Assembly: GCA_031385045.1 (NCBI GenBank)
Contig: JANNBC010000049.1
Location: 1 to 46,205, forward strand
Direction: 5' to 3'
DNA length: 46,205 nt
Origin: a bacterium
GTDB lineage: Bacteria > Bdellovibrionota_C > UBA2361 > CALJRW01
The position numbers were made by a program. Shown in pieces: positions 36,001-45,000 of this stretch; position 1 is the stretch's first letter; the number at the start of each line of letters is the position of its first letter.

Positions 36001-39000
36001 GTATACTTACTAAATATTAGAAGTTTATTCTCTGGAAAACTAAGTTAATCGAATTAGTTCACAAAAGCTATGAATTTTATCTTCATTTATTTGTGAATCT
36101 TAAACTAAGTTAGTTTTTACTAACGTTGGAGAATGCTCTCATGCTTAATACAATTTAACAAAAATATGACAACAATTCATTCTAGCTTTGAGATTTATGG
36201 GAAAAAAATATCGATACTGCTAATCGCATTATTGCTTGCTATTATTATAAGAGGACTGACTCTTGAATACGGAGACCTTTTAGACCCAACAGAAACTAGA
36301 TATGCAACGATAGCCCAAAATATGCTGTTTTCAGGGGACTGGGTTACACCACGCTTACCCAACAATGATGGGCTAGAACTCTATTTTAGTAAACCACCCC
36401 TGCATTATTGGCTAACCGCAATTTCTTATCAATTATTTGGTATTGATGAATGGACATCTCGCCTCCCTAGTTTTCTAGCATTACTGTTAATGCTTGGATC
36501 AATCTTGTTATTTGCCAAGAAATTTTTCACTCTAGAAATTGGCTATCTAGCTGGTTTAATCTGTGTCACCTCGCCACTAATGTTCTTTCTCTCGGGTAGT
36601 AGTACCATTGATGTTACCTTTGGTGCTTTAACATTTGCCGCCTTAGTAGTTTTTGCTGTGGCTGCTAGTGAAGCAGGTAAACCTGGCAACAACCAACTAA
36701 TGGGTCACCTATTTTTTATTTTCTCAGCACTGGCACTAATGACCAAGGGGCCAATTGGACTAATCTTGATTGGCATACCAGTGTTTTTTTATTGCTGTTA
36801 TCATAAAAGTTTAAAATGCCTAGCCTTTTTACCGTGGGTAGGAGGAATCAGTCTGTTCCTTTTAATAACTGTGCCTTGGTTTTATTTAGTAGAAAAAGCA
36901 AATCCAGGTTCTGTTCGCTACTTTTTTGTTAATGAAAATTTTCTTAGGTTTGTTGCCAAAGATTACGGCGGAAAATATGGAGACGCACATATTCAACCAT
37001 ATGGTGCTATCTGGTGGATGTTAATTCTATCAATTCTACCGTGGTCACTTTATTTAGTAAAATATTTTATTCATAACGTAACTAATTTCAATAAGAGTAA
37101 TTTATTAAAAGAAAACAAATGGCTACTTTTTATTCTGATAGTTGGGATTAGCCCAATCCTATTTTTTACAGTTGCTAGATCGATCTTGCCCGCTTATGTT
37201 GTTCCAGCGGTTCCTGGCTTGGCACTCTTTATTGGCTATATTACCCAAAACTCCAAAAGAGCTTTGGCAGAGATCGATCAAAATAATTGTTCGTTACTCA
37301 AGAAAAGCTTTTTTCATAAATTTAAGGGAGATTATCCTTGTATTTTGAAAACTAGCGTTGTTACATATGCAATTATTAATTTGCTTTTCCTAATTGCAGC
37401 TCCAATTATTGAAGTAAATAAATCAGCCTCAGAGATCTTAGAGTTAATAACAAGTCAATCAAAGAGCAAAACTGTCACTGTTGCCATTGTGGCAACGAAT
37501 AATTACTCACCTTATTGGACAAGCGGAGCATATCAAGAAGAACTTTCTAAACCACTAAAAGTGATTTACGTAAAACCAACCGAACTTGATACTGTTAAAT
37601 ACAAAAATCTAATCTTAAGAGGAGACGATCCAAATCTACTGGCACAAATCAATCTTCATTATAAGCGATTTGATTCTAGGGGAAAGTGGCATTGGTATCG
37701 AAGAATTATTTAATTGAATACGCCGATGATAAATAGTTACATTCTATCTGGAACCGTTATCCCAAGTAGGCTTAATCCTTGATTAAGAGTTTTACTAACT
37801 GCTTGACTAAACATAATCCGGTGCCCACTAAGTTCTAGATCCTCGGAGACAACTCGGTTATTGGCATAATAGGAATTAAACATTTTTGATAACTCATGAA
37901 GGTATGTACAGATATGATTAGTCTTAAAAGTCTGACATACTTCGAGTGTCATGGCATTAAACTCATTTAGTTTAAACAAAATTAATTTTTCCTCATCAGT
38001 CATTCTTTCCTGATTAAAGTATGGCTTGATACCAATTGATTCTGCTTTTTTTAACAGAGAACTAATCCTTACAGAACAGTATTGAATATATGGCCCTGAC
38101 TCACCATCAAGCTTTAACCATTCCTCCAAATCAAAAACTACCTTGGAGCTAGGTTCATATCGATTCATTGCATATTTAATTGCTCCAGCAGCTATTAAAT
38201 CAGCAGTCTTAAGGATCTCATCCTTTGGCCATTCTTCCGAGTATTTATTTAAAAAACTCGTAGTAATATAATCTCGCATTCCATTAATTAAAGAACTAAT
38301 TGGAACAATATTACCCTTCCTAGAACTCATTGCTCCATCCGGAAGCTCTACAAAATTATAAGGCAGATGAAAACAATCACCAGCATGTTCATACCCTAGC
38401 TTATCAAGAACTTTAAAAATTTGCTTAAAGTGATGTGCTTGGCGCAAATCAACTAGATAAATACTTTTATCTAGTTGATGATCATCAAACTTTTTCTTTG
38501 CTAAATACAAATCCTTACTACTATACATACCATTTCCATCAGACTTTAGGAGCATACAAAAACCTAAGTTATCCTCTGTTAAATCCATTCCAACGGCACC
38601 TTCTGATGAAACTAATTTCCCTTGGGCATATAAATCTTTAACTAAATTAACAGAAGCACTATCAACATCCGATTCCCAATACCAGGTATCAAACTTTATT
38701 CCTGACCAATTATAAGCTTCTTCCATTTGATCTATGGACCATTCCCTAGTCTCCTTCCAAAGCTCATAATACTCACCTTTTTGTTGTTCCAACTCTCTTA
38801 GGATTTGCGTTAAGATTTTAGCAGTCTTTTCACTTTCGGGAGTTTCTGCTTCGGCTTCGATTTGAGTATTAGCTTTCGTATAGAGTGCCCCTAACCACAC
38901 ACCTTTTTTGGATTCCGGTACAGGTTCTTGATTATGATTTTTTAAATACCATAGACACTTTGCGACATGTGTTCCAACATCACCTGGGAAGGTTGATGTT

Positions 39001-42000: not shown

Positions 42001-45000
42001 GATTCCCAGAGTAATCCATTCTTGATTAAGACCGCATTCTCTCTAAATTGTACATGTTTTAAAATTTGCTCCCGATAGATTGGCTGACCATAGCCAGCAA
42101 GCCCCATCGTCTTACCTTCTTCTAATACTCCAAAACCAGATAATAGGGTTCCAATCCGATAGAAAACTCCTAAAGAATTCTGCATATCAAAATATGAACT
42201 TACTTTACCTGTAATCACTTTTGTATCTACAATTTTATTCTTTAATCCGTAGCCTAATAAAACAGTTTCATAGATATTTTGATCTACTGAATCTCCGTAG
42301 CCATCTGTAACTAGGATCGCGGCATCTTCTGCTCCAGAGGGGAAAAATGCCGAGGCAGCGTGAGCGAGATGATGATTAATAAAAAGTGATTTTTGAGGAT
42401 AAGGTAAAAAGTTATGAAGAGAGTTACCAATTAATATTCGGTCTTGATTAATATTAACAGATGCCGCCTCCAGACAATATTTAATTAAAGGATCCAGTCT
42501 AGACTCAGATAAAGAAGCTGAGTCAGATTCCAAATTCATTTTCGCAAAAATCTCCGGATCAAATTTAGAATAATTACCAATGTCTAAACCATGCTTAACC
42601 CTTGTTAATCGCTCTTCTTCGATAGCAACTATTGGTTGACCATCTTTAAATAGACAGACCGTCCGATCATGTAAAGAATCACTAAATCCAATAAAAATAT
42701 TCTTGGTATTCATTAATAGTAAGATATTAGATAGGGGTTATCAGGGAGTAAAAATTGACTTGGTGGCTCCTTGGTAAGAACAGCTGTCCGACTAAGTAAT
42801 CTATCAGTGCCATCATACCTTGGAGTAAAGCTAGTTCTAGCATGGACTGAATTACTATTATTAATTAGTAGTAGATCGCCAACCTGCAAGGTTAATTCGA
42901 AGGCATTATCATTGAGATGTTGGTGTAATATTTTTAATGCATTAAAGGCTTCTAGATTATGAACTTTAGTAAATAGCGGATCAAATCTCATTTTAATTCT
43001 ATCAGGATTTGATAAGTCTAAGACAGGAAATGTTATGCCAGAACTAATGTTATCGACTGAGGAGTCCGGTAACATTGTATAATGGTTTCCTTCCAGTATA
43101 CTAATTATTTCTCGATCAATTTTAGAAAGATCTATTGTGCTTAACAGTGTCTTAGCCCGATCGTCCCCTCTAACACAAAATAATTCAATCCAATCACAAT
43201 TCACAGGAGAATGGGCATCCTCTGAATGCCAAAGTAAATCTACCGAGTTAGTTCCAACCTGTTCTGTGGATGTCTCAATTTTAGGAGTTAAGGTTTGAAT
43301 GACTGCACCATTGCGTTGACCAATATAACCATAAGGCCGACCAATTGTTAGTGCCATTGAAAAGACAATTAAATTACTTAATTGCATCAATTCTTTTTCC
43401 GTCCCTATTCCCTGACCAAAACCCCTAATTAAAAAGAAACCACTTTCCTTTTGTGATGTAGCTTTTTTGCCCAGAGTATCAATAACATTTAGGAAGTCTG
43501 ACATTTTTGAAAAAAGAAGATTTTCTAATAATTTTAGATCTTTAGAATTATTATAATCAATATCTAATGAAACCAGAGATAAGGCATTATTGATAATGGC
43601 AATCTCTGCTGAGCTAAGAATATATAATGAGCTACTGAATTTTTTTAAGATATCGTTTTGAGCAGTGAATGTATCAGGCAAATATGGGATGAAAGAATAA
43701 GTACTTCCCTGAATTTCACCAAACTTAGAAGTGGAAATCATTGTCCTGTGAATATATTAATTATTAGGATCTAAAGTCAATAAAAATCTTTATGTTCCTT
43801 TTTTGCAACAAATACCTAACTTATTTGGTTATTAGTGAAAAAATGACATCTGAAAGGAGCAAACAAGTTGGAATTTAAAAACTATCGAATTATTTGCGGG
43901 TCATCTTTGCTTGGGCATATCACTTCGCTAGTTTTCATCTGTTGTAAAAAAACGTCATTTCTTGACTCTCAGTGAGCTGAAAAATTAGATGTTTTATGAG
44001 TAGAAAATAAAAAATTTAAGGCCATCAAGTATTTTTTATTGCGGATCACCATTTATTACTGTGACCTAGATCTGCTTTTTCATTGGAGTTGGCAACTCTG
44101 GGTCTGCCATGCATATGATTGAAAAAATAAAAGCTACGAGAATCTACCATTTTTACTGATTCTAAACTCTGCGGCTACTTTAATCGTTAAAAGCAATCAA
44201 CAAAGAGTCAAGTAATTCCTATTTAAAACAAAGACTGATAATTATATTTTCATTTTTAAATTATGTGATCTGATTTTTATTTTGTTAGTGCATAACACAT
44301 AGAATCTCTTGGAATCTTAGGATCTATATTTGGTCGAACCTTCCATCGTTTTAAAATACCTTCGAATTTTAATCCAATTTTTTCAAGAACTTTTGCTGAG
44401 GATTGATGCTCAGAATCACAGACTGTCCAAACACGATAAATTTCTGGATTAGAAATAGCTAAATCCACTATTGCAGAAGCAGCTTCTGTGGCAAAGCCAT
44501 TACCCCAATATTTTTTTGCAACGGCAAAACCAATTGTAGCAGAACAATTATTGGGAATTAACGAAACAACTCCAACAGGTAGATTCTCAGTTTTTGAGAT
44601 AATTAAATATTCAAACCACTCACCCAATTCCCATGACTTTTCGGCTTCAGATAAATATTGGATTGTGTCTTCCAGTGTTTTTGGCGGAAGCCAAGCCACA
44701 TAACGATTAATTTCTGGATCAGTTGAATAACTAAAAACAAAATCTGCGTCTTCTTTTTTAATACGGCGCAATACTAACCTAGTGGTAGAAATTTCAGAAG
44801 GAAATATTTTACTCATTAGATTTACTGATATTTCAAATTAATCCTAAACATACATAAGTGTTAAACGGAAATGAATTCCTATTATAAAACCACTGTTCAC
44901 ATAAACATACTAGCACTATTTAAACCTTAAAAAATAGAAACCTTTAAGTAGTAGTGCATTTTATGTGATTTGTTGTTTGTTATTCAAGTAACATCACAGA

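Follow-up and report, generated by a model that had tools for sequence, protein, structure and literature searches.

The window (the whole 46,205-nucleotide stretch of DNA that was analysed) carries a cassette of four close-packed minus-strand genes, with intergenic distances of -1, -23 and 29 nt. The cassette and the features around it are as follows.

37737..40034, minus strand: GNAT-ArgRS fusion, 765 aa (Pfam and NCBIfam domain matches, AF2 model, fold comparison)
40064..41068, minus strand: M20 ArgE/DapE-like amidohydrolase, 334 aa (domain matches, alignment)
41046..42713, minus strand: CmcH/NodU/TobZ-type carbamoyltransferase, 555 aa (domain matches, identity to the L052 and L054 copies)
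42713..43741, minus strand: Fe(II)/2-oxoglutarate amino-acid hydroxylase of the VioC/OrfP/KDO1/AsnO kind, 342 aa (domain, motif and fold evidence)
43751..43780, minus strand: sigma-70-like site (10/12), candidate cassette promoter immediately upstream of the hydroxylase gene
44277..44816, minus strand: RimJ-type GNAT, 179 aa (domain match), 535 nt upstream of the cassette
46124..46178, minus strand: 3' tRNA-Leu(TAA) fragment, an att-like duplication identical at 54 of 55 bases to a full tRNA on contig C55

All four ORFs were found where an earlier note had placed them, and Pfam and NCBIfam searches reproduced its domain assignments. The fusion is not an assembly artefact; positions 34000-46153 are covered by a single contig of flat depth, from a run that may itself be the source of the assembly. 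The candidate promoter is weak evidence because sigma-70-like sites are no commoner in our scan than in shuffled sequences (24 observed against a shuffle mean of 30.8), and promoter and terminator signals across the region did not exceed chance level. A search of positions 36000-46205 against Rfam gave no matches, domain annotation of the cassette genes revealed no exporter, and the RimJ-type GNAT has no relative at L052 or L054, two loci that resemble the cassette.

The 765-aa fusion is intact, and consists of a GNAT (approximately residues 19-158), an ordered linker (159-184) and a complete ArgRS (185-765). The AF2 model has a pLDDT of 90.7 and a pTM of 0.91, and the fused domain is a SACOL1063/YjcF-type GNAT as judged by its fold (TM 0.91 by target and rmsd 1.5 against SACOL1063) and its acetyl-CoA motif. 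The SACOL1063/YjcF/ElaA GNATs, which it resembles in fold (TM by target 0.91 and 0.88), in sequence (~31% identity) and in its acetyl-CoA motif, are free-standing proteins of ~145 aa, whereas the cassette GNAT is fused. The ArgRS part has the Add1, catalytic and DALR domains (PF03485, PF00750 and PF05746), scores 354.9 against TIGR00456 argS (curated cut-off 261.65), and keeps E309, N314, H320, H323, Y504, D508, Q532, MSSRK, Y652, R656, Y723 and M765, which we take, from yeast ArgRS, to represent HIGH, KMSKS, the arginine pocket and the anticodon positions. From its sequence it qualifies as an arginine--tRNA ligase and is predicted to charge tRNA-Arg. The earlier note had suggested that this ArgRS may be insensitive; insensitivity through an altered pocket is not supported by our alignments, as the pocket, HIGH, KMSKS and anticodon positions all carry the majority residue of 117 unfused relatives. 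The pocket differs from that of the native ArgRS at E/D309, Q/A312, F/H349 and K/R515, but at none of these from the 117 relatives, and any insensitivity could come solely from the type of enzyme.

The native ArgRS is encoded at C54:288463-290202 and is 26-27% identical to the fused ArgRS; a housekeeping duplicate elsewhere in the genome, one of the tests for a self-resistance aaRS, is thus present. As the earlier note held, this is the ordinary ArgRS and the sole type in the sister species G001, with whose single ArgRS it shares 80% identity and synteny. The same note knew of one other fused protein, and we find two other fused clusters: among 120 listed of 223 matches to residues 20-330, GNAT and ArgRS Pfams occur together in three proteins (the cassette fusion, P0002 and P0003), and P0002 and P0003 each have a second member, P0123 and P0124, which are other fused genes. 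The cassette fusion and these two clusters form one clade, with identities of 63-68% in the ArgRS and 42-47% in the GNAT. Describing this ArgRS as foreign to its order was an overstatement, because the only ArgRS of G014, from the same order, is of the fused type, is 48% identical and clusters with the fused clade. In 90 further genomes of the order the junction query detected no fused copy, and the exact motif of the fused clade had no match in either metagenome_contigs or genome_contigs. Across 123 other genomes of the phylum the GNAT domain query matched no long frame, while similar GNATs stand free in seven of them. ArgRS types are distributed patchily within the order. Two DALR matches occur in only 6 of the 115 phylum genomes that have a DALR match, and the additional ArgRS genes in G012 and G034 adjoin no module of this kind.

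The cassette hydroxylase has the facial triad (H172-E174-H300) and the guanidinium-binding Asp (D254) expected of VioC/OrfP arginine hydroxylases; its Q161/G163/D254 match Q142/G144/D255 of the OrfP pocket and are widely kept in the 24-row alignment of its subfamily (Q in 24, G in 23, D in 21). It falls below the VioC/OrfP equivalog cut-offs (TIGR03946, 113.8 against 418.6; NF041363, 130.4 against 345), and in the fold search lysine (KDO1) and asparagine (AsnO) hydroxylases rank equal to OrfP. OrfP, VioC, CmnC (PMC9513391), KDO1 and AsnO share its fold (TM ~0.74) and His-Glu-His triad, and OrfP its Gln-x-Gly and guanidinium-binding Asp, but at 21-27% identity in structural alignments the cassette enzyme belongs to a subfamily of its own, uncharacterised and lacking NRPS or PLP cyclase partners. 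A scan of genome_contigs with this single protein confirmed none of 78 pattern matches.

The carbamoyltransferase matches Carbam_trans_N (120.1 bits) and Carbam_trans_C (209.4 bits), both over cut-off, falls under the NodU equivalog cut-off, and is 53% and 52% identical to the copies at L052 and L054. In the M20 enzyme seven residues (H68, D70, D92, E123, E124, E148 and H302), presumably the metal site, are invariant in 14 of 14 aligned rows. Its sequence, which matches the M20 domain itself and lies well below the ArgE equivalog cut-off (TIGR01892, 99.4 against 297.7), indicates a probable N-acetyl amino acid deacetylase or peptidase. Members of the M20 subfamily are also found alone in six genomes of one genus.

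At the cassette site, next to the tRNA-Leu att site, the sister species has different genes. The full tRNA-Leu on C55 is adjoined by an integrase-like ORF, and the att-like 3' fragment marks an integration hot spot. In codon use and GC3 the four genes lie inside the genome's range (percentiles 16-72), so composition cannot date the transfer. Genes of the argG and OTCase families are present in the genome, which makes the module dispensable for arginine synthesis and led us to reject the cassette as an alternative route to arginine.

Similar gene arrangements recur elsewhere. At the metagenomic locus L052 the genes again run hydroxylase-CmcH-M20-ArgRS, with identities to the cassette of 39%, 53%, 38% and 28%, respectively, and downstream of its ArgRS lie carB and, in converging orientation, a free-standing GNAT from the same family that is 36% identical to the fused domain. 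The ArgRS at L052 is similar to Saccharimonadota clusters and may be the housekeeping enzyme of its cell; because an AU test rejected placing it in a single clade with the fused ArgRS (p 0.002), an ArgRS has been linked to the module twice. In G065 a second ArgRS lies in the strand-run of a hydroxylase of the same subfamily, adjoining an integrase-like ORF. The repeat of the gene order at L052 with an ArgRS of another lineage and the second ArgRS in another cluster of the hydroxylase subfamily are both new. Of eight loci of this subfamily with context, three have an ArgRS and one (L055) an AlaX-like editing fold, while no ArgRS occurs at any of 75 hydroxylase loci that are more distant (by hand count, 25 of these extend 6 kb or more downstream). 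A comparison of 2/4 with 0/25 gives a Fisher p of 0.015 at a score cut-off chosen post hoc and with some loci near-duplicates; leaving this genome out, the hydroxylase accompanies a double ArgRS in one of three genomes (p 0.13). L054 has hydroxylase, CmcH, methyltransferase and M20 genes yet no ArgRS within 7.4 kb downstream, and none occurs at L136, L117 or L138 within 8.1, 4.2 and 3.1 kb. On viral contigs none of 80 distant hydroxylase loci has an ArgRS, CmcH or M20 gene, the M20 search found nothing and CmcH matches reach just 25-32%; plasmids gave distant matches only. A candidate pairing of hydroxylase with M20 was dropped because the L055 hydroxylase has no M20 gene beside it. The earlier view of an acquired cassette with a functionally linked ArgRS gains support from the independent loci L052 and L137, the synteny break and the OrfP-like hydroxylase pocket.

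These loci also bear on an explanation that we consider improbable, namely that the GNAT-ArgRS is the housekeeping ArgRS of an unsampled donor, joined to a common small GNAT with no functional meaning, which arrived at a hot spot with an unrelated tailoring module. The patchy ArgRS types, the related sole copy in G014, the age of the fused clade suggested by its internal identities and the solitary GNATs in seven phylum genomes would all fit, and no M20 or hydroxylase match came from a contig equal in length to those of the fused relatives. That blank is weak, however, because the M20 search overlooked the cassette copies already known at L052 and L054, and hitchhiking would require the same module to have landed twice directly upstream of argS with the same GNAT family adjacent each time.

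Reading substrates, product and protective role from the genes, folds, intact catalytic motifs and recurring linkage, we infer that the enzyme cassette probably produces an arginine mimic and that the fusion most likely shields the cell from its own product. In its specific form this is our tentative preference, held at slightly under even chance: the cassette would make an O-carbamoylated hydroxy-arginine-like antimetabolite, and the fusion would join two immunity devices that occur singly in tiarin clusters, an alternative-type ArgRS and an N-acetyltransferase. The accessory operon would thus yield a modified basic amino acid, most likely such a residue. The Fe/2OG enzyme would put a hydroxyl on the side chain, CmcH would carbamoylate it with carbamoyl phosphate and ATP, the GNAT would N-acetylate the alpha-amine so that an intermediate is masked or the product detoxified, and the M20 enzyme would strip the acetyl group or trim a peptide, so freeing the active form. 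An additional ArgRS of a different type would maintain the supply of Arg-tRNA while the native ArgRS is inhibited or mischarging. In keeping with this, acetylation of free amino acids, Arg among them, has been reported for a SACOL1063-like enzyme (PMC10267138). Against this reading we count the unchanged arginine pocket, the missing exporter, the ArgRS-free loci L054, L136, L117 and L138, the possibly housekeeping ArgRS of L052, the one-in-three count of double ArgRS outside this genome, the limits of the Fisher comparison, the stand-alone M20 genes and the ranks of the lysine and asparagine hydroxylases.

Tiarin clusters encode an additional ArgRS and a GNAT, either of which confers immunity to an ArgRS inhibitor, and trifolitoxin has been named the first natural one (bioRxiv 10.64898/2025.12.02.691738). 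Like the cassette, these clusters pair a biosynthetic operon with a GNAT (TfxH) and with an ArgRS of a type other than the housekeeping copy, which lies elsewhere in the genome; they differ in that their two immunity devices are separate, whereas the cassette has both in one polypeptide and its enzymes tailor a small molecule. Among the annotated cassette genes, short ORFs left out, there is no TfxB/TfxC-type dehydrogenase or precursor-peptide family, and the 95%-complete genome has no TIGR03605 match over cut-off and no YcaO. The carbamoylpolyoxamic acid branch of polyoxin biosynthesis, PolL-PolP (PMC4029187), likewise combines a carbamoyltransferase of the NodU type, which O-carbamoylates a hydroxy amino acid, with a GNAT amino-acid acetyltransferase, deacylation and hydroxylation, but the cassette lacks the kinase and reductase and has a separate M20 enzyme and an ArgRS. 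Mangotoxin was set aside as a parallel, its chemistry being different (PMC13725569).

The ArgRS might instead be biosynthetic, moving arginine from Arg-tRNA or Arg-AMP to the nitrogen of the CmcH-made carbamate to give an arginyl-carbamate mimic of Arg-AMP, with the GNAT capping and the M20 enzyme uncapping the alpha-amine; we judge this unlikely. The precedent is SbzA of SB-203207/8 (PMC6331615), a full-length class I synthetase duplicate that retains HIGH and KMSKS and transfers Ile from tRNA to a sulfonamide in a cluster with GNATs; there, however, the synthetase is an IleRS, and the GNATs are separate and use carrier-protein-bound acyl groups. An unchanged arginine pocket is compatible with such a role, and the conserved ordered linker and the pTM of the model suggest a fixed GNAT position. 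On the other hand, L054 has no ArgRS, the cassette has no nucleoside or scaffold genes, and three unrelated ArgRS lineages in this role are easier to explain by protection than by a new catalytic activity.

Editing in cis seems to us very unlikely; in that scheme tRNA-Arg would be charged with the analogue by the ArgRS, and acetylation of the mischarged residue by the docked GNAT would flag it for peptidyl-tRNA hydrolase to remove. ArgRS takes canavanine and depends on CtdA, an editor that is a protein of its own (PMC10018355), another ArgRS (L298) carries a B3/4 domain in the corresponding N-terminal position, and an AlaX-like protein comes next after the sister hydroxylase at L055. The fused GNAT, however, belongs to the small-molecule SACOL1063 type, and at L052 the GNAT is a separate gene. 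Less probable still, the module would detoxify or break down an arginine analogue from outside the cell, or would act on a substrate other than arginine, for instance lysine or asparagine. The lack of an exporter, the standing of KDO1 and AsnO level with OrfP and the genome's own argG- and OTCase-family genes would suit this reading, but carbamoylation that costs ATP is unusual in catabolism, and the linked synthetase is an ArgRS in all three cases found.

Fusions of a synthetase and a GNAT have a precedent in the IleRS with an N-acetyltransferase domain (NF040702), a different synthetase, although in the window that model matches the RimJ-type neighbour and not the fused GNAT domain. The fusion offers a clue to the function of the YjcF/ElaA GNATs, which are poorly understood. 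Natural arginyl-tRNA synthetase inhibitors are almost unknown, and the four-gene cassette is small enough to be rebuilt in the laboratory, where its product and escape by ArgRS type would be directly testable. The recurring link of the hydroxylase subfamily with an ArgRS or an editing-type protein can be used as a genome-mining rule. More speculatively, and we regard this as rather doubtful, a family of small clusters in uncultured bacteria may make a non-peptide mimic of arginine or arginyl-adenylate directed against ArgRS; in the boldest form of this idea the cluster ArgRS would arginylate the carbamate and the rigidly docked GNAT would cap the product, so that synthesis and immunity would be one machine.

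The cassette comprises four genes on one strand of the window:
43741-42713, minus strand, Fe/2OG oxygenase (the hydroxylase), 342 aa
42713-41046, minus strand, CmcH-type carbamoyltransferase, 555 aa
41068-40064, minus strand, M20 hydrolase, 334 aa
40034-37737, minus strand, GNAT-ArgRS fusion, 765 aa
The intergenic gaps of -1, -23 and 29 nt fit a single predicted operon, and the codon use of the genes is not deviant. The cassette holds no exporter, which we count as a main gap.

Searching with residues 20-330 of the fusion among proteins of 420-1339 aa found 223 proteins and, of the 120 matches listed, three carry both domain sets (the window protein, P0002 and P0003). 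The fusion is real and rare. The earlier note's count of one other fused protein was too low: there are two other fused clusters, with P0123 and P0124 as additional members. We found no fused copy in 90 other genomes of the order, and an exact-motif search of two contig collections gave none either. The ArgRS part exceeds the argS cut-off. In a quick tree that used 58 of 153 rows, the four fused proteins included all group together (SH-aLRT 100) within the Bdellovibrio-type enzymes, and their clade adjoins the single ArgRS of G014, a genome of the same order. A clade uniting the fused enzymes with the native ArgRS on contig C54, which shares its gene neighbourhood and 80% identity with the sole ArgRS of the sister species G001, was rejected by a tree-topology test. 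ArgRS types are patchily distributed across the order: there are five or more, some of them ~700 aa long because their catalytic domain carries a long insertion.

The AlphaFold2 model of the whole fusion chain (pLDDT 90.7, pTM 0.91), built on an alignment with GNAT present in only 5 of 45 rows, has an ordered linker and hints that the GNAT may hold a fixed position relative to the ArgRS. Editing in cis by the fusion (PMC10018355; PMC12449066, both in excerpt) seems to us improbable. The fused GNAT matches SACOL1063; a look-alike of that protein, Hpa2Ab, accepts Thr, Trp, Tyr, Ser, Arg and His as substrates for acetylation, according to an excerpt of PMC10267138. The fused ArgRS agrees with 117 unfused relatives throughout the pocket, the HIGH and KMSKS motifs and the anticodon positions, and its private changes (e.g. 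G622, A655 and F301/M302) sit outside those positions. That it is a biosynthetic ArgRS like SbzA (PMC6331615, in excerpt) is an unlikely alternative.

Conserved motifs are kept in both the CmcH and the M20 enzyme. The CmcH subfamily occurs in 1/124 genomes of the phylum, the second phylum match being an orthologue of a different CmcH on contig C27, and the hydroxylase subfamily (relatives grouping with the cassette enzyme) occurs in four of the 124; the M20 subfamily is not cassette-specific, as six genomes of one genus carry M20 alone. The hydroxylase most resembles OrfP, CmnC, AsnO, VioC and KDO1. By alignment its Q161, G163 and D254 equal Gln142, Gly144 and Asp255 of OrfP, a matching that assumes a 20-residue tag offset that we inferred; in CmnC, the position equal to OrfP 255 binds guanidinium (PMC9513391, in excerpt). 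These residues fit arginine or another basic amino acid, conceivably lysine, as the substrate. A different substrate altogether, or a role in detoxification, is the most improbable of the readings weighed.

The window is syntenic with G001 from ~14 kb to a DUF3109 gene at 34.5 kb. Because synteny then breaks, and unrelated genes in G001 reach to the same att fragment, the cassette sits in a variable region. The shared fragment is as follows:
46124-46178, tRNA-Leu(TAA) att fragment, 54/55 bases equal to the full tRNA on contig C55
Beside it (45196-45982) is a RelE/Gp49-like and HTH gene pair, probably a toxin-antitoxin module. Elsewhere in the tRNA-Leu(TAA) island of this genome, translations judged by eye gave reverse-transcriptase-like and Avd-like ORFs (C55:1-1000 and C40:36-791), possibly a diversity-generating retroelement, and the G001 island at the same tRNA has decarboxylase-like and cysteine-synthase-rhodanese genes (L241:13419-16261, contig C19). 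The window also holds a ~145-bp repeat (30475-30619; some 30 copies genome-wide), possibly a MITE or REP-like element, and a 131-bp direct duplication (22712-22944; 89%) adjoining a tRNA-Leu (22972-23056) that ARAGORN reads with anticodon AAG, as in G001.

Aligning 24 hydroxylase relatives yielded 320 metagenomic loci, of which we used the best 80. Those with related gene sets, and one in genome G065, are:
L052: co-oriented hydroxylase, CmcH, M20 and ArgRS, followed by a convergent gene for a 145-aa GNAT of the fused-GNAT family and by carB
L053/L054: hydroxylase, CmcH, methyltransferase and M20, opposed by an ATP-grasp ligase, without ArgRS
L137:9792-18004 (G065, contig C23): strand-run of hydroxylase, SDR, AMP-binding enzyme, AsnB-like amidotransferase, 2H phosphoesterase and a second ArgRS, with an adjoining integrase-like ORF
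L055:8654-9559: 301-aa AlaX-like fold protein with HxxxH and CxxxH motifs, its gene overlapping a subfamily hydroxylase
The L055 protein belongs to unnamed Atlas clusters, and we take its motifs to be of editing type. Two Logan contig sizes (8606 and 20238) turned up both for a subfamily hydroxylase and for a subfamily M20, an indirect sign of one more module copy. The recurrent hydroxylase loci and the window enzyme form one tree group (SH-aLRT 91). An ArgRS accompanies three of the eight subfamily loci and an editing-type protein one, and four have neither within 3-8 kb; none of 75 more distant loci (25 with at least 6 kb downstream) has an ArgRS, in a count made by hand, with some near-duplicates and a cut-off picked after the scores were known. 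Two DALR matches occur in 6/115 phylum genomes, and the genome-level link between hydroxylase and double ArgRS is not significant without this genome (p 0.13). That the ArgRS is a mere hitchhiker we consider unlikely, to about the same degree as the biosynthetic role. The L052 ArgRS is 28% identical to the fused one and resembles Saccharimonadota clusters; its union with the fused enzymes was rejected (p-AU 0.002; long branch, simple model). Separately, L298:3146-5797 (G034, contig C240) encodes an ArgRS of 883 aa that begins with a B3/4 (CtdA-like) domain; its bin has another ArgRS as well, and the 6-kb contig that carries this one may be mis-binned; the words 'fused' and 'fusion' are absent from the available part of PMC12449066. 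At L299:3-5747 (G082, contig C149), an extra ArgRS lies in a candidate cluster running methyltransferase, aminotransferase, ArgRS, PALP-domain protein.

Full-text searching, with most subscription journals outside its coverage, returned no title or abstract describing the fusion or the cassette gene set, and 'ArgRS' is absent from the available portions of reviews and surveys of synthetases outside translation (PMC2922099, PMC12945691, PMC9437257). Synthetase-GNAT fusions have precedent (NF040702) and the protective logic is already known; the fusion, module and predicted product are undescribed within the literature searched.

The reading we find most likely, at somewhat short of even odds, is that the cassette makes a hydroxylated, O-carbamoylated arginine-like compound and that the fusion gives two-in-one self-protection. 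Synthesis would pass through acetylation and then deacetylation, on the model of the polyoxin branch (PMC4029187, in excerpt). Tiarin clusters encode two separate defences against a trifolitoxin-type ArgRS inhibitor, a cluster ArgRS of a different type and the GNAT TfxH, and the housekeeping ArgRS of E. coli is intrinsically resistant (preprint, bioRxiv 10.64898/2025.12.02.691738, in excerpt), so that enzyme type can confer resistance. The GNAT-ArgRS fusion would combine both forms of protection in one polypeptide.
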